Positions 4,357-63,642 of a stretch of 64,000 bases of DNA are shown in pieces (positions within the stretch are counted from its first letter, which is position 1; each line of letters begins with the position of its first letter). This DNA is from Eledone cirrhosa (taxonomy: Eukaryota). Location: positions 35,402,001 to 35,466,000 of the forward strand of contig OZ024745.1 in assembly GCA_964016885.1 (NCBI GenBank), read 5' to 3'. The position numbers and the translations under genes are program-made. The notes under the pieces were generated by a model. It saw only the letters and a list, made by a program, of their open reading frames with translations. It was not told the DNA's origin and did no database searches.

Positions 4357-5545
4357 CTACATTTTAAATTTATATTTATATTTAAACGTTGAGTTTAATC
4401 TATGTCTGCAGCAACTGAATAAATTATTTCTTAAGTTCAGGGAATTTTTGGTCTTTAATATAAAGAATATTTCCTCTATACAAAGATCGCAATTTTCTGA
4501 AGAGGAGTTAAAAGGAGTAGCTTATGAAATAATATTCCAAATCAACGAATATTCAACGTTCTTTAGTTTTAGGTCCCATAATAGGCTAGATAGAGAAGTT
4601 GAAGATTTTTTGTTTGGATCTGTAAAAGAATTTTTATGATTATTGAAGCGGGATTTAAACTCTGTGGAAGTAGATCCCACATAATTAAATGAATTTAAAT
4701 TAGTTTTTACATTACAATTATATACTACATTTTTAGCTAAGCAATTGTTATTTAACGGACAGTTAGATTTATTTCTACAGTTACATTTATCAAATTGGAT
4801 ATTACTTGGGTTATTATTGGTGTTTTGGTTAGGTTTTAAATTTCTATTATTAATTCTATTAATATTTTGCGCTAAATCTTTGGTGGAAGAATAAGTTAAT
4901 TTTATAGTATGTCTATTAAAAATTGAGTAAAATCTATGTGTTCTAGGGAAGCATTTGTCAAGAGCTTTAAAAAATAGTTTAGCAATAGGGGTTTTAATAT
5001 TTAATGAGAAAGGAGGAGCGAACCATAATATGTTCCTAGTTCTATTTCTTTTTCGGCTTTCGGAATTAATGTAAGGTTTTCTATTATAGTTGTTAAAATT
5101 GTTAACATAGTTAAAATTGTTACGATTATGGTTAGTTGTTATATTATTATTATTATCGATGTATTTAATTTTATTTCTATACCCAGCTCTACCTAACGCT
5201 TCGTTGTAATAATGTGCTTTTTCATCAAATATATTCTTATTAGCTGAAATTCTCGAAATTCGTTCTTGTACAGAGTTCACTATAGTATTTTTAACGGATC
5301 TGGGGTGATTAGAGTTAAAATTTACGTAATTTAAGTTCTCATTTAGTTTGTGAAATGGATAATGAAGACATGTGTTAAGATTTAGTGTTACATCTAGAAA
5401 ATTAACTATTTTATGGTTATTCTCTATTTCTACTTTTAGATTAAGGTAATTAAAAAATTGTATAATTTGTTTTCTTTTTCTATTTAGTTCACAGTTATTA
5501 TTTTCTATAAGTAAAAGCATGTCGTCACGATATAAACCTCTTATA
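4357..5545 (-). pseudogene. Penelope-like RT C-terminus plus GIY-YIG endonuclease (one premature TAA at 4522-4524)
   Basis: GLYRDD, VNFLDVTLNL, SNHP, LWFAPPFS, CNCRNKSNCPLNNNC linker, NVVY..YVGST..FKSRFNNH. Frame continues past the stop as ATPFNSSSENCDLCIEE...LN...CCRH. Confidence 0.9.
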
Positions 5546-17405: not shown

Positions 17406-18651
17406 ATATTATCTCTTTCTTTTAATTTCGAGTATAGCATTTTTGACCGGCCACCTTCCTGGTGGCTAGGTTGTAAAAGAAAAGAAATTGTCATCCCTTG
17501 AATCGCAAGAACATTTTGAAAATTTTGAAGGTGCCTGCTATGTCAGCCATTTGTAGACTATGAATTAGGGAGCTGCGCTTTTTGTCCGTAAATCCAAGTT
17601 CAGTCATACTTTGGTCCAAGCGGGTTGGTATATAACCCGTAGCTCCAATGATGATGGGCATGAAGCTAAAGGTGTATCTTGGATACTGGATTTGTAAACT
17701 CCTCATCAATGGTCCGTAGATGTCCTCCTTCTCCTGTATTTTTCTGACAACGTTTACATCAAGTGGGCAACTGATCTCCACAACAGAACACGTTTTCAAT
17801 GTGTGGTCCCAAACAACAATATCAGGCCGGTTGTGCTTTAATTTAGTGGCAGTTTTTATTTTCAGGTTCCACCAGTATTCCTTAGTGCCATCTGTCTCAA
17901 TATATTCTTCCTCGTTTGTTGTTAATTTTGTTTTCCGAAGTGAGTTCCAGATGGTTCTAGCTATCCCATCATGTCTCATGGGGAGGTAGTAGCGAGATGA
18001 CATTCTTTCGCAGCTGGCAACAATGTGGCTTACATCCTCGATCTTTGTTTTACATAGCCTACATTTATTGTCAGCTGCTGGCCCTCCTCTTTTGTGCAGC
18101 AGATATTTGGTAGGGAGTTCTTGTTCCTGTATTGCATAGAGATATCCCTCAAGGTGTGATGTCATAAACTTGTCGGAACTCCATGCCAGGCTTTTTGAGT
18201 GGTTTATCCCCTCTATGGTCTGTGTTTTACGTCTCAAGTATCCATGCACAACTTTTTCTGTAAATTGGTCAATTTTTTTCATCTTGTTTGAACATTGAAT
18301 AGGATCTTCCGATTTCTCTAGGTGAGAGATTTATATCAGGCTTTATTCCATATCTCTCCTCCAGATCAGTCACTATTCTAATGATATTTATTTTCATGCT
18401 CATAAACCTGGGCAAGATGGTTGCCAACCTTTTTCCTCTGTTGAAGGTGTTGCTTCAGTGTTACTATCCGGGTCTCATATGTTAATATTGATTTTAGACC
18501 CCGGCCACCTTTCTTGCGTCAGAAGTATAGCCTATCCACATCACCATTGATGTTAAAGTTCCCAGTAACACTGAGAAGTTTGCGAGTTCTAACATCCATC
18601 TCACTTAGTTCTTGCAATGACCAGTTCAGCAGGCCAAATGTTGGCGTTAGA

Positions 18652-23487: not shown

Positions 23488-23507
23488 AGATAGAGAAGAT
23501 CAGAAGT

Positions 23508-24575
23508 GTGGAGAGAGCGGTTGACAGATCTGGATGTAAGGAGAGCTGGATGATCATCAATGAGATCACAGGGAGGAAGAAAAGGTGTTCGAGTCAGATC
23601 CAGGGAACGGGGCCCGAGGATAGGAAGAGGAAATGGCTAGACCATTTTAGGACCCTACTAGGAGAGCCACCCTCCACAGCCCGGAGCGCTGGGGAGATCA
23701 GGCGGCTGTTTGAGGAACTGGATGTTGAGACAGAGCCCTTTACCAGAGAGGAGCTTCAGATAGCCAAGAAGAAGATCAAGGAGGGCAAGGCTCATGGAGA
23801 AGATGGAGTGGCATCAGAGGTGATGAAGAGGTGTGATTTTGATGATATCATCCTGGGGTTCTGTAACGGGGCACTGGAGAAAGGAGTTGCCCCGAATCAG
23901 TGGAGGATCAGTAACATCGTCCCAGTGCCAAAGAAGGGAGATCTCTCTAACACCAACAACTACCGGGGGATCTCACTGACGTCACTTGTGGCAAAGACCC
24001 TCAACAGGATGATTCTTAACAGGATCCAGCCTGAGATGGAGAAGAAGCTCAGGGACAACCAGAACGGCTTCAGAGAGGGTAGATCAACCACCAGTCACAT
24101 CCTGATGCTAAGGAGGATATTAGAGGGAGCTAGAGCAAAGTGCCTTCCTGCGGTCATGGTTTTCATTGACTTTAGGAAGGCCTTTGATTCTGTGGACTGT
24201 TACTGGCTGATGAAGATCTTACAGGCTTATGGAATCCCCAAGAGGATGGTGGACCTGATATCACTGCTCTACACCAACACCAAAGCCCAAGTCATTACAC
24301 CTGATGGGATGACAGAGTTCTTTGAGATACTGGCTGGAGTGCTCCAAGGAGATACATTGGCTCCCTACCTTTTTATCATCGTAGTGGACTATTGTATGCG
24401 CCTTGCACTGGAGAAACACCAGGACACTGGCTTTACTGTAGCACCGGCTCAGAGCAGGAGAGTTGGGGCGAAAAAGGTATCGGATGCTGAATTTGCCGAC
24501 GACATAGTTTTGGTGACAAATACAGTGAAGGAGGCAGAGGATTTGATGCGGGAGGTTGAGACTGTGTATTTGTAA
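23508..24575 (+). CDS. LINE reverse transcriptase, N-terminal part
   Basis: VPVPKKGD..NYRGISLTS, QNGFREGRST, FIDFRKAFDSV, GVLQGDTLAPYLF, EFADD. Confidence 0.9.
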   Translation: MERAVDRSGCKESWMIINEITGRKKRCSSQIQGTGPEDRKRKWLDHFRTLLGEPPSTARSAGEIRRLFEELDVETEPFTREELQIAKKKIKEGKAHGEDGVASEVMKRCDFDDIILGFCNGALEKGVAPNQWRISNIVPVPKKGDLSNTNNYRGISLTSLVAKTLNRMILNRIQPEMEKKLRDNQNGFREGRSTTSHILMLRRILEGARAKCLPAVMVFIDFRKAFDSVDCYWLMKILQAYGIPKRMVDLISLLYTNTKAQVITPDGMTEFFEILAGVLQGDTLAPYLFIIVVDYCMRLALEKHQDTGFTVAPAQSRRVGAKKVSDAEFADDIVLVTNTVKEAEDLMREVETVYL

Positions 24576-25281: not shown

Positions 25282-25506
25282 ATATATATGTGTATATATA
25301 TATATGTGTATGTATGTGTGTATATATATATATCTCTATTAATGCGTGTGTGTATGTATATACATATGCCTTTTTATTATTATTTTTATTTGTATGTCTG
25401 AGTTAGGTGAGGTTGTAGTGTTTTTTATGTATATACGCATATATGGAAGCGTATGTATTTATATATATGAGTATAAGTAGGTGCATATGTATGTATGATT
25501 ATATAT
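24567..25506. repeat. About 940 bp TA/TG/TATG low-complexity insert splitting the RT
   Basis: Interrupts ...MREVETV|MSVGLRMNETKT... Confidence 0.85.
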
Positions 25507-26186
25507 GATGAGTGTGGGGCTGAGAATGAATGAGACTAAAACAAAATATCTGGTAGAGAATGTTGAGAAGTCAGAGGGGATCACTAATGTAGGCGGGAAG
25601 CCGCTGGAATTGGTTGAGGACTTCCTGTATTTGGGAGCAAAGATTGGGAATACGGAAGATGATGTGGTTGAGAGGAAGAGCAAGGCCTGGGCGGCGTGTT
25701 ACAGCTTGAGATCGGTGTGGAAGTCGGACCTTCGTAGAGACCTGAAAATCCGCCTCTTCATTGCTGTAGTGGAGTCTGTGCTGCTGTATGGGTCTGAGAC
25801 TTGGACACTGACCAAGAGACTCACTCAGATGGTGGATGGGTGCTACACGAGAATGCTGAGGATGGCTCTGAACATTAATCAGTATACACTGAGGATGAAA
25901 AACTCAGAGCTGTATGGGAGCATCCCAAAAGTCAGCTCAAAAGTGACACAGAGGAGACTGAGGTTGGCTGGACATGCTCACCGACATCCAGAGTTGACAT
26001 TGCACTCAGTGCTCCTTTGGGAGCCCCTACATGGACACACTAGAAGAGGAAGACCAAGGTTAACATATGTTGATGCCCTAAGGACAGACACTGGTCTGTT
26101 GGAGATGCAGGATATGGCAGCGATAATGAGGGACAGAGACCGCTGGAGAGAACTCGTCCATGGATCTCGGGAATTTTACCCGCCTT

Positions 26187-30969: not shown

Positions 30970-32286
30970 TGGAAAGATTACGAAAAAAACATTAGAGTAT
31001 TCTTCAAAAAAACTAGGCCTAAGTATCACTTTCGAATTTAACTCTAAAAAAGCAAATTTCTTAGATGTAATTCTTAACCTAAACACAGGATTAATAGAGC
31101 CCACCCATAAGAATAACGAAAATCTAGCCTACATTAGTTATAACTCAAACCACCCCCGATCCATAATTAACTCCGTAGCACATAGTATATCCCTCAGAAT
31201 ATCCCGCCTATCTTCGAACCTAGACATTTTTAACGAACACGCAAAATATTATAACATAGCTTTACATAAGGCTGGACATAAGGAGAAGCTGGAATACATA
31301 CTAGATAGAGACAACAACAACAAACCTAACGACAACAACACAACCCGCTCATATAGAAATAACAAGCATAGAACTAGAAAACGAGCACCAAAAATAACCG
31401 AACAGAACACTATTATAAGGATCCCCCAAAACTATAGAAGATCCAGAGATAGAAAGTACCTATGGTTCAATCCAATATTCAACTCCTCTATAAAAACTAA
31501 ACTACCTTCTACATTCTTTAAACGAATAGATAAGCACTTCCCTACACTACACAAATACCATAACATCTTTAATAGAAAAACCATAAAACTGTCCTACTCT
31601 ACTGCAGCCAACATAGAATGGTACAAACGTAAGATCAACCACAAAAAATATCTCTAAAGAAATTAACCTACCAACATGCACCATAGCACCAAACACAAAA
31701 CACATAACAACATCACAACCACAAACCCATCAGAACGTTTCACAACAAAACATTAATAGGCCTAAATCACAACCCACCCACAACAACTTACAAAACCGCA
31801 ACGATGAACCTGCACAAAGTAAAACCTCAAATTGTAATTGCCACCTACCGGATAAGATGCCTGGATTCGAGTATGGTATACCTGTGTACTGTAAATTCAG
31901 GCAACTCTACTTGGCACTACATATGTTCCACGGCTGGGGAGTTCAAGAAAAAGTGGTACGTCCACAGGCCCTCCATGAAGAACCGTGAACTGGAGAACTC
32001 TACGATGCTCGCCAATAAAATCTGGCAGCTTAAGGACAAAAACCTAGAATATAAGAAGATTAGCTGGTCAAAATTATCGGTAGCAAAAGCCTACATCAAC
32101 GGAATGTCCCACTGCGGGCTTTGTAATTTAGAACTTCTACATATTTTAAGGTACGATGGGATGCTGCTTAACAGCAAAATAGAAAGATCAATTTTCTGTA
32201 GGCATAAAATAGCTACTAGATTCACAAACTTCAAACCACCAGCAATCCCAAAATTAGTACTGGACCACCTAGATTTTAACATATAG
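30970..32286 (+). pseudogene. Penelope-like RT C-terminus plus GIY-YIG endonuclease, frameshifted
   Basis: Hand translation: KANFLDVILNLNTG..YISYNSNHPRS..LRISRLSSN..YYNIALHKAG..YLWFNP..IFNRKTIKLSYST. ORF 31804-32286 has MVYLC..YICST..CGLCNLE..LLNSKIE..CRH. Confidence 0.88.
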
Positions 32287-37645: not shown

Positions 37646-37716
37646 TATTTTATTATGCGCATTTCAAAAACAAATATCATCATGCAATAACATTTGCGTT
37701 TTCGTCAGATAAAATA
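37646..37716 (-). ncRNA. Minimal type I hammerhead (family B, left arm)
   Basis: Reverse complement of 37906-37976. Confidence 0.8.
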
Positions 37717-40125: not shown

Positions 40126-40352
40126 TGCATATATACATATATATTCCGCATGGATTATCCATTTATTTTGAGACTTGAAACCGCGCGGTAAGGGTAATTA
40201 TAGCAGGTACAGTGAACTTTTAAAAATGTATTTTAAAACATAGAATATTCGAAAATATTCTGTATGTTTATAATAAACATTTTGAAGACCTAATCGCTAT
40301 AGAATAGAATACGTCACGTATTACAATTAGATTCTCGATAAAAGCAAGGGAA

Positions 40353-40395
40353 GTAATCTACGCGTTTCATTCTCGTTAGAAATCATCAGGACTAC
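40353..40395 (-). ncRNA. Minimal type I hammerhead ribozyme (unit 1)
   Basis: GTAGTC-CTGATGA-tttctaacgagaat-GAAAC-GC-GTA-GATTAC. Confidence 0.85.
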
Positions 40396-40662
40396 ATATC
40401 CAGTGCTTTTATCGAGAATGACACAGCTAGAGACTTATAGAATACTTAGCTGTGTACAGGAACTGGTTTGAAAGAGCGGTTGCCGGTCCGGCAGAAATTA
40501 GAAATTGGAATAAATGCTCTGAAATAGCGATATATATGTGAATATAGACATAGAATATTCGAAAATATTCTGTATGTTTATAATAAACATTTTGAAGACC
40601 TAATCGCTATAGAATAGAATACGTCACGTATTACAATTAGATTCTCGATAAAAGCAAGGGAA

Positions 40663-40705
40663 GTAATCTACGCGTTTCATTCTCGTTAGAAATCATCAGG
40701 ACTAC
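40663..40705 (-). ncRNA. Minimal type I hammerhead ribozyme (unit 2)
   Basis: Identical to 40353-40395. Confidence 0.85.
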
Positions 40706-40890
40706 ATATCCAGTGCTTTTATCGAGAATGACACAGCTAGAGACTTATAGAATACTTAGCTGTGTACAGGAACTGGTTTGAAAGAGCGGTTGCCGGTCCG
40801 GCAGAAATTAGAAATTGGAATAAATGCTCTGAAATAGCGATATATTCCAATTTCTATTTTAAAACATTTTCTTATTTACTAAACCTGGAT

Positions 40891-58771: not shown

Positions 58772-59244
58772 GAGGTTATATATAATTTGTTGGGATACAA
58801 CAAGCAAAATATTTTTATAATTGATATAAAGCACTCAACAAATTGTTGGAGAAAATATACTATATATGAACAAATGGAAACTATATTTATAAAATCATAT
58901 TTATTTCATTATACATATTTCAAGGGCCACCAAGGCAAACTATGGTGCACTTTCATCAGATAAAATATAATATAGGTTAGTTTTATAAATAAATATTGAC
59001 ATACCCTGAAAAAATGAAACCATTTTGGTTGAAATCTCCTGGATAGAGGAGTTATTAGATTTATTGTTGGAGATTCAAACAAGAATGGTTTCATTTTTTC
59101 AGGGTATGTCAATATTTATTTATAAAACTAACCTATATTATATTTTATCTGATGAAAGCGCACCATAGTTTGCCTTGGTGGCCCTTGAAATATGTATAAT
59201 GAAATAAATATGGTTTTATAAATATAGTTTCCATTTGTTAATAT

Positions 59245-59247
<3 letters not shown>
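58769..59247. mobile_element. Family A fold-back pLTR pair with hammerheads at 58902-58967 (-) and 59141-59206 (+)
   Basis: Arms about 58869-59040 and 59069-59240; homologous to 2705-2990. Confidence 0.88.
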
Positions 59248-62658
<3,411 letters not shown>

Positions 62659-62659
62659 A

Positions 62660-63642
62660 TTGCTTTTAAATTAATCAATAAACATTTGGATAAACTACGG
62701 TGTGTTTTCTCTTCGAATGCTGTCCAGCAGCAGCAGCAACAACAACAGCAACAACAACAACAGCAACAACAACAACAGCTACAACAACAACAACAGCTAC
62801 AACAACAACATCAACAACAGCAACAACAACAACAACAACGACAACAACAGTGTGAACCACTCCTTGATTCATCAACAATGGCCGATCTACTAAATGAAAC
62901 TATTGACCCCCCAGTAGCCTCTGTCTCACAGCATGAAACGCCACATCCTTTCTCTGGCCCAGCAGTCCAATCATCACCACTGCCAACATCTCTGCCTACT
63001 ACTACTACTACTACTACAACATTTTTGTCTACTGCTATGTCAAGGAATTTACCTTCTAATACCAGAACAAGAACTCTCCCTCCCACAGTCCACAAAGGTC
63101 GTCAAATCCTACCCAAACAATCATCCACACCTCTCACAACACCCACACCCACATACCCACCCACTCGAAACCGCATCATTTGCCGCTACTCTCTACGCTA
63201 TAGAATATGTACGGATAGTGGCTGCAAATTCACCCATTTACCTAGGACAAAACGATCTATCCCCACAAACAGCCACCACCATAATACATACTCTAATTTA
63301 ACACCAACACAACCACCAATAACTCAAACAAGGAATCCACAAATCTGCCGTTTTTCCCTGCGAGACAGATTGTGTTTAGACCGGGATTGTCCCTTTACCC
63401 ATCTCCCGGGGACCCGTCGGATAAATGAAAATAAAATTAAAAATAAAAGCAAAAACAAAAACCATAACCTACATAAAAATAACCACTACCACAGTCACCA
63501 ACAGTCTTCTAAACAGGAAACTTCTTCCTCTTTTTTAGCCATAATGAATCTGGCAAAAGAACTGGAAAAAAACATTCGAGCTATCACCCAGCACCACCCT
63601 CCACTATCACCCCACTGCACAAACTCCCATTGCTGCCATTAA
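62660..63642 (+). CDS. LINE ORF1-like protein: poly-Q, P/T-rich region, two CCCH-type zinc fingers
   Basis: [21 protein letters not shown] and [21 protein letters not shown]; lies directly upstream of an APE domain. Start is uncertain (ATG at 62878). Confidence 0.65.

Follow-up and report, generated by a model that had tools for sequence, protein, structure and literature searches.

A 310-base hammerhead repeat of Eledone cirrhosa, a candidate non-LTR retrozyme with Penelope-type insertion anatomy

A stretch of 64,000 nucleotides from Eledone cirrhosa (assembly GCA_964016885.1, contig OZ024745.1, positions 35,402,001 to 35,466,000 of the forward strand), which we call the window, contains a tandem repeat of a 310-nt unit with a hammerhead ribozyme in each unit. 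The question raised by this locus is what kind of element the repeat is and by which route it entered the genome. The first-pass annotation of the window had called it a retrozyme candidate, and our analysis upholds that call: the duplication does not behave as an assembly artefact, and other copies of the repeat traverse the same junction. The most informative feature, which that annotation lacked, is the two-armed, Penelope-type anatomy of the insertion. We propose that the element is a non-LTR retrozyme and that a Penelope-like enzyme would have reverse-transcribed its putative circular monomer over several rounds, starting on each of the two nicked strands of the target, a reading to which we assign, from the comparison of sequences, a probability of roughly 0.65. 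Statements on published work refer to the accessible parts of the papers cited.

The insertion in the window and its hammerheads

The insertion is 613 bases long. It contains, as had been annotated, a tandem of the 310-nt unit (1.96 units, 100% identical, 40238-40845, period 310), and an exact duplicate of 298 bp (40238-40535 and 40548-40845) lies on either side of a 12-nt junction, 40536-40547, which occurs once in the window. This junction is ordinary unit sequence (unit 122-133) and overlaps start site A, which other copies use. Unit positions are counted from the first base past the predicted minus-strand cleavage site (plus 40668), and position 310 is the A where the ribozyme would cut.

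The repeat has the extent first given for it, 40238..40845, but the full element is larger: it includes a 14-nt inverted arm and is bounded by 13-bp direct repeats at 40229 and 40855. The long arm (40242..40845, minus strand, 1.96 tandem units) has its 3' end at unit 117-121 and shares 4 nt with the target site, so that the match extends to 40238. The short inverted arm (40843..40856, plus strand, unit 157-170) terminates at start site B; it overlaps the long arm by 3 nt and has 2 nt in common with the target site. The two identical copies of the target-site duplication, 13 bp each, are at 40229..40241 and 40855..40867 (plus strand). Immediately downstream of start site B is a GC-rich block (40473..40497, minus strand, with a second copy at 40783-40807), which is kept in older sister families and is possibly bound by the reverse transcriptase.

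The insertion is hosted by an older dispersed repeat (40150..40890, plus strand, with flanks at about 40150-40241 and 40868-40890), the right flank of which was matched 50 times with at most 2 mismatches in a pattern search of the genome. At 10 of 11 paralogous loci of this host repeat the flanks are contiguous and the site is present in one copy, that is, the site is empty. The 13-bp direct repeat is therefore a true target-site duplication. The host repeat itself (40150-40241, 40868-40890; L243-L253) ends in TA, and the 3' half of a hammerhead was seen in it by eye; it may be the end of a Penelope-like element. The remainder of the window is rich in microsatellites and transposons, and an AT microsatellite tract of 3.4 kb lies at 59241-62660.

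On the minus strand, each unit carries CUGAUGA, GAAA, the palindromic ACGCGU and a GUA site, so that the earlier description of one minus-strand hammerhead per unit, with ACGCGT palindrome and GUA site, holds for both units. Hammerhead 1 (type I, 40663..40705, minus strand) has its predicted cut between plus 40669 and 40668, and hammerhead 2 (type I, 40353..40395, minus strand) between plus 40359 and 40358. Helix I has 6 bp, helix II has 4 bp and a closing U.U, and helix III has 2 bp with the palindrome. Helix I of hammerhead 2 is extended by a 16-bp stem (40331..40419), in which 40331-40346 pairs with 40404-40419, exactly where the inverted repeat had been reported; the equivalent stem of hammerhead 1 is at 40641-40729. 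The hammerheads had also been called minimal. They are intact, but the minimal form does not apply: the minimal hammerhead of Penelope end repeats has a helix I of 4-5 bp and a helix II of 7-8 bp and is without helix III (PMC4209133), and the window unit departs from this. By the definitions in the accessible text of that paper it is a canonical metazoan type I hammerhead with a weak helix III. The 33-nt core has 4,225 exact matches in the genome, compared with 0 for a reversed control, and thus it is not a product of chance. A search of Rfam gave 0 hammerhead rows among 84 matches and among 8 matches.

The predicted 310-nt monomer between the two cleavage sites (40359..40668, minus strand) has a GC content of 34.5%, and its longest ATG frame is 30 codons in the circular unit. 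It is self-paired, with a fold z of -3.9 for the linear and -3.8 for the circular form (100 shuffles each). In the 16-bp stem, 14 of 16 pairs have a predicted probability of 0.97-1.0, and helix I is near certain as well. The predicted pairing is weak for helix II (probability 0.15) and helix III (0). When the window dimer was folded, the double hammerhead had -164.2 kcal/mol, two single hammerheads had -157.2, and the lowest fold had -170.6; that is, the double hammerhead lies 7 kcal/mol under the two single folds and 6.4 kcal/mol over the lowest fold. The prediction fits a low activity of the monomer and a better activity of the dimer, as for the axolotl ribozyme HHR_Amex2, which cleaves better as a dimer (PMC7229834). 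Among frog retrozymes, 8 of 9 dimers failed to cleave (10.64898/2026.07.22.740005). A promoter was not identified in a scan that used a bacterial model, which is uninformative for an animal host.

Family, two-arm anatomy and Penelope-like elements

Copies were counted by sequence-pattern matching across the 3.0-Gb assembly. The hammerhead core with four variable positions gave 18,231 genome matches, corresponding to about 5.6 Mb, and the matches were spaced 308-312 nt where listed; the genome search that the first-pass annotation had advised thus finds further arrays in abundance. The exact B end followed by TA occurs 1,046 times. With 8.4 units per insertion in the mapped sample, the matches correspond to about 2,200 insertions genome-wide as a rough figure, and we estimate the insert in the window to be one of about two thousand young copies of a protein-free 310-base hammerhead repeat.

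Two public runs (X1 and X2) each have one contig of 340 nt (310+30, a closed cycle) that is identical to the window haplotype. We rejected these closed contigs as evidence of circles, since tandem DNA collapses likewise. Moreover, a Penelope end that is abundant in the genome is covered in X1 to a similar depth, as expected of DNA reads at low coverage; no contig of that end was obtained from X2 or from a further run, X6, which does not show its absence there. The contigs bridge the junction 40536-40547 and support the head-to-tail joint only; in the assembly, 581 full units in 61 arrays traverse the same junction.

Older sister families are about 78% identical over unit 59-212 and share both ends and the inverted arms. 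They carry other hammerheads, and the long stem around each of these has a sequence of its own. That different ribozymes sit in a shared backbone with shared ends suggests an exchange of the ribozyme module. One sister family has a U3-A8 core and a helix III of 6 bp (sister loci L172-L201, L083:2449-2866, L192). The sister motif has 97 matches.

In order to describe the insertions, we mapped 90 stretches, all on one contig (C1), of which 10 were picked by the ribozyme core and 80 by a B end next to TA, taken in order from 100 listed B ends. They contain 92 insertions; 11 that were incompletely covered were dropped, leaving 81 fully seen. Two back-to-back tandem arms, with 3' ends outward and 5' ends meeting, were present in 75 of the 81. 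The remaining six comprise one insertion with an extra internal inversion and five single-armed ones, so that an inverted, 5'-truncated head-to-head copy is present in 76 of 81 (75 simple, one complex) and in the window. All 75 two-armed insertions have one end at site A (unit 125-139) and one at site B (163-170), and pairs of A+A or B+B were not seen (0/75). The B end was preset by selection in most of these loci and the A end was free; at site A the last bases are indistinguishable from TA. Among the loci picked by the core, 9 of 10 are A+B and one is a single A arm. The spacing between sites A and B is 26-35 nt as a rule.

The 5' ends of the arms are spread around the unit (uniformity p=0.06). 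The median arm has 3.2-3.6 units, and single arms reach 29 or more. The lengths of paired arms correlate weakly (rho 0.36), and the arm junctions share 0-3 bases in 46 of 75 insertions. At least one flank carries (TA)4 in 71 of 76 insertions, a count biased by the selection for a B end next to TA; by eye, all 10 core-picked loci lie in a TA-rich microsatellite on at least one side. Target-site duplications elsewhere appear as shared strings of 11-15 bp at several imperfect TA sites, and in pure TA they are unreadable. The mapped insertions consist of unit sequence alone, and none of the 92 has a reverse transcriptase or GIY-YIG frame.

Penelope insertions have an inverted truncated copy, a tail of 30-40 bp on one end and TA targets (PMC8557442, PMC3846280). 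Judged by its layout, the A+B two-arm pattern is this signature of inverted copy plus tail. The Penelope enzyme of the anole nicks and extends both target strands, and two internal start sites bound the tail (PMC11167929); the 26-35 nt between A and B match the Penelope tail that was mapped to two internal start sites in that study.

GIY-YIG gave 150 scored matches in the genome, and reverse transcriptase and GIY-YIG occur together in 9 of 16 long frames scanned. Long Penelope-like open frames of 938, 844 and 1096 residues, detected through their endonuclease domain (L112:4809-7622, L113:2488-5019, L114:1775-5062) possibly belong to active families. A candidate autonomous Penelope family has 10,768 exact matches to its own ribozyme, and its insertions lie in TA, are inverted and have two ends. 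A count by eye gave an open frame of at least 750 residues for about 33 of the 77 copies scored. Its frame is 20-27% identical to the others, with a GIY-YIG match in one piece. The ribozyme core and helix II of this family and of the unit are alike in 26 of 28 nt, the U.U pair included, which suggests kinship, and we regard the family as a candidate partner of the unit. Its start sites differ from those of the unit and are about 70 nt apart. Among 50 GIY-YIG loci, no end-repeat match was found beyond the ribozyme core of one family and separate insertions of sister families; 30 of the 97 sister-motif loci were followed, and all ran on as retrozyme and none into a frame. That is, an autonomous element with the start sites of the unit was not found in these two sets of loci.

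Several further observations concern Penelope-like sequences. Unit 226-256 (window 40413-40443) resembles L118:4216-4289 and L122:7791-7868 (74% over 80 nt), which are head-to-head junctions of short insertions of the Penelope family with the shared ribozyme; descent of the unit from a junction of this type is uncertain, since part of the stretch is also present in sister families. Elsewhere in the window there are Penelope-type hammerheads at 2897(-), 22312(+), 28311(+) and 34138(+), and divergent hammerhead pairs about 200 bp apart at 37708(-)/37914(+) and 58959(-)/59149(+), which look like short two-armed insertions of other families. Decayed Penelope-like frames at 4438-5538(-) and 31025-32250(+) are 37-42% identical to the candidate family. 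Matches to reverse transcriptase, zf-RVT and, weakly, DUF6451 at 23490-24572(+), 17491-18327(-) and 25499-26185(+) are remnants of other retroelements. Outside the window, four hammerheads about 490 nt apart (L124:8068-9553), 3 kb downstream of a Penelope-like frame, form another retrozyme-like array.

The template and the rival explanations

Of the 150 arms, 133 are longer than one unit, and only 8 would fit on a linear cut monomer. The template was therefore a circle or an uncut multimer. We compared haplotypes in the 61 arrays with at least three full units (581 units) and found 22 array-wide fixed haplotypes, 14 of which occurred in a single array. Twenty arrays have no fixed change, a class whose size owes something to the 10 core-picked loci and which includes two mosaics. 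Both arms share the haplotype in 48 of 50 arrays, compared with 13% for random pairs, an agreement that would not require one molecule if one source array were expressed per cell. Private changes number 68, or 3.8e-4 per base. The arms cross the cut site about 628 times, and the joint in the 581 full units has 0 insertions or deletions and three single-base changes at position 1. A new change that is fixed in all units of both arms implies passage through one monomer, and a repeatedly read circle provides that.

Five of the 61 arrays are mosaics, with variants in some units only. Both arms of L207 (100-6501) begin with two units of one haplotype and then switch in register, and L061 (1076-5094) has an in-register switch in one arm, which a single circle would not explain. 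Because these five carry partial variants, we attribute a minority of arrays to multimers, template switches or later conversion. The three longest of the arrays examined (L073, L052 and L051) carry the same private variants repeatedly, in units that do not lie side by side.

We next consider the spectrum of changes, for which 83 insertions with twofold cover were used, six common marker sites were left out, and polarity was taken against the window haplotype. Of 30 array-fixed events, 15 were A>G and 2 were T>C (p=3e-4). All nine A>G sites sit in predicted A-U pairs, and at position 276 (UAG) A>G occurred on five backgrounds. Among private single-unit changes, A>G accounted for 6 of 58 (p=1e-4 by events, 0.004 by sites). 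Compared with C>T at C-G pairs, A>G was in excess by 15 to 1 events (p=0.005) and by 9 to 1 sites (p=0.06). ADAR-family deaminase domains are encoded at four places in the genome, and the A>G marks could be ADAR edits of RNA adenosines in stems. Selection for pairing stays an alternative, because the excess by sites has p=0.06 and G.U also keeps pairing. Of the changes within the hammerhead, 0 of 11 fixed and 4 of 9 private ones fall in the core (p=0.026), and in the stems pairing was kept in 6 of 6 fixed and 2 of 12 private substitutions (p=0.0015), both comparisons being post hoc. Avoidance of the core over the whole unit alone (0/27 fixed, 4/68 private) was without significance.

The route that we propose is as follows. 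A tandem array would be transcribed on the hammerhead strand, the hammerheads would cut, probably as a double hammerhead joined via ACGCGU, and a host ligase would close the monomer, in the stems of which ADAR may edit some adenosines. A Penelope-like protein would nick an AT-rich target on its two strands, with about 13 bp between the nicks. Of the two target 3' ends, one would prime at site A (unit 125-139) and one at site B (163-170), each cDNA copy would run round the circle for a variable distance, and the two cDNA ends would join via 0-3 shared bases, followed by fill-in. In the window, the site-A copy would be 608 nt and the site-B copy 14 nt. In a stricter form of this proposal, every insertion would preserve a single circular RNA in DNA, copied by two reverse transcriptases from two fixed sites, with its A-to-I edits in every unit; we put this forward tentatively, as somewhat less likely than not.

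Among other explanations, the one that survives best keeps Penelope-type twin priming but takes as the usual template an uncut linear multimer from a source array, with circles rarely or never used. The five mosaics (L207, L061, L073, L052, L051) and the weak prediction for helices II and III speak for it, as does the anole element, for which in vitro ribozyme cleavage was dispensable and uncut RNA was the main template (PMC11167929). Without a monomer, however, a change in a single unit cannot become fixed in 14-21 units of both arms (L054, L068, L213, L218, L224); moreover, the haplotype of 14 of the 61 arrays is shared with no other array, and editing of a multimer would give mosaics and no fixation. 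We consider this explanation unlikely.

Alternatively, the enzyme might copy linear self-cleaved monomers and jump from the 5' end to the 3' end of the same or another monomer. This would account for the in-register switches in L207 and L061, but the arms cross the cut site about 628 times, and the joints in the 581 full units show no insertion or deletion and three single-base changes at position 1; there is no excess of 5' ends near the cut site (3 of 150 within 5 nt), and arms are uniform in 48 of 50 arrays. We therefore judge such jumping improbable.

It has also been proposed for retrozymes, in the accessible discussion of 10.64898/2026.07.22.740005, that amplification is local. Here, short insertions would later have been amplified in situ as a satellite by unequal exchange, and the ribozyme would be a passenger from a Penelope end repeat. 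The repeated private variants of L073, L052 and L051 would agree with this. Against it, the two inverted arms each comprise several units, have exact ends and share one haplotype, the low rate of private changes leaves little time, and seeding requires an arm that is already longer than one unit; furthermore, the A>G excess is strand-specific, and core and stems are spared. This origin seems to us highly improbable.

An inverted arm made by fold-back self-priming, a model discussed in PMC3846280, could be suspected in the window, where a mere 23 unit positions separate the sequence mirrored by the short arm from the long arm's end. We reject it as a very remote prospect because the offsets between paired 5' ends follow a uniform distribution (20 nt or less in 10 of 75, compared with 9.9 expected); besides, either arm may be the longer (34 vs 41), by more than one unit in 52 of 75, and the second arm always ends at the other start site. 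Finally, a false duplication of a solo unit by the assembly, to which the perfect identity of the units might point, has a negligible chance in view of the target-site duplication, the empty paralogous sites, the family-typical second arm, the thousands of arrayed matches and the junction bridged in other public runs.

Relation to known elements and meaning

Metazoan non-LTR retrozymes of coral, mussel and axolotl have tandem units of 150-450 bp with a GC content below 50% (PMC7229834, review PMC7761336). The family of the window shares with them one type I hammerhead per unit, the absence of a coding frame and of long terminal repeats, a target duplication of more than 4 bp, a self-paired monomer and the presence of Penelope-like elements in the same genome (PMC7229834). 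At the level of sequence, it agrees with these retrozymes in each feature tested; it inserts in Penelope-like fashion and is not autonomous. The closest ribozyme is HHR_Amex2, which likewise has a U.U closing helix II and a helix III of 2 bp (PMC7229834). For the coral, mussel and axolotl retrozymes expressed circles have been demonstrated, whereas the family of the window is known here from DNA alone.

Circles as templates of tandem cDNA and Penelope-like elements as mobilisers were proposed in 2020 (PMC7229834). A vertebrate survey likewise derives retrozymes from Penelope-like elements, as non-autonomous forms, on the grounds that the two co-occur and have homologous end repeats; it leans to local tandem amplification after insertion, without insertion anatomy (10.64898/2026.07.22.740005), whereas the arrays here look multi-unit at birth. 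Published proposals thus already cover the class, the circle model and the link to Penelope (PMC7229834, PMC7761336, 10.64898/2026.07.22.740005).

With endonuclease-bearing Penelope-like elements the family shares the head-to-head 5'-truncated inverted copy, the one-sided tail of 30-40 bp and TA-rich targets (PMC8557442, PMC3846280). In those elements the target duplications are about 8-10 bp, and the hammerhead is upstream of the start sites, as in the family of the window; for the Chlamys clade there is mention of non-autonomous forms with several copies head to tail (PMC8557442, PMC3846280, PMC11167929, PMC4209133). The family of the window differs in that it has no frame for a reverse transcriptase or an endonuclease, it consists entirely of the repeated 310-nt unit, and its hammerhead is of the canonical form in a long stem and not minimal.

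In LINE-1 twin priming, two target-primed cDNAs point inward and are joined by microhomology. The present family differs from this in having no poly(A) end and in its fixed start sites, 26-35 nt apart, from both of which the same sequence is copied and not distinct portions of a linear RNA.

The A+B rule, the array-fixed haplotypes and the A>G excess were not found in the texts consulted or among the literature matches listed on retrozymes, Penelope, twin priming and RNA editing. The accessible texts of PMC7229834 and PMC7761336 describe neither a two-armed anatomy with start sites nor haplotypes fixed throughout an array nor A>G marks in the genome, and the word "inverted" is absent from that of PMC7229834. 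For the two-arm anatomy this holds for the main texts; Supplementary Figure S9 of PMC7229834 and the tables of the preprint may bear on it. Among the literature matches listed, nothing relevant was found on a cephalopod or octopus hammerhead retrozyme or on retrozymes together with RNA editing, and the accessible part of PMC9977147 held nothing further of relevance.

Retrozymes carry no motif that names their mobiliser (PMC7761336), the mechanism of their return to the genome is called open (10.64898/2026.07.22.740005), and the origin of the Penelope inverted copy and one-sided tail is unsettled (PMC8557442, PMC3846280). With thousands of near-unmutated insertions and a strict end rule, both questions become testable by counting. 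For assays in vitro, the family also offers a template of 310 nt on which both start sites are mapped, together with a (TA)n target.

Should the A>G marks prove to be edits, a transient editing of RNA would become a heritable change of DNA via the circle. If each insertion records one circle, the about two thousand arrays would document, like fossils, a population of viroid-like RNA which evolves under ribozyme selection, is mutated by host editing and exchanges ribozyme modules with Penelope-like elements. Twin priming would then account for the inverted copy and the tail of Penelope insertions.
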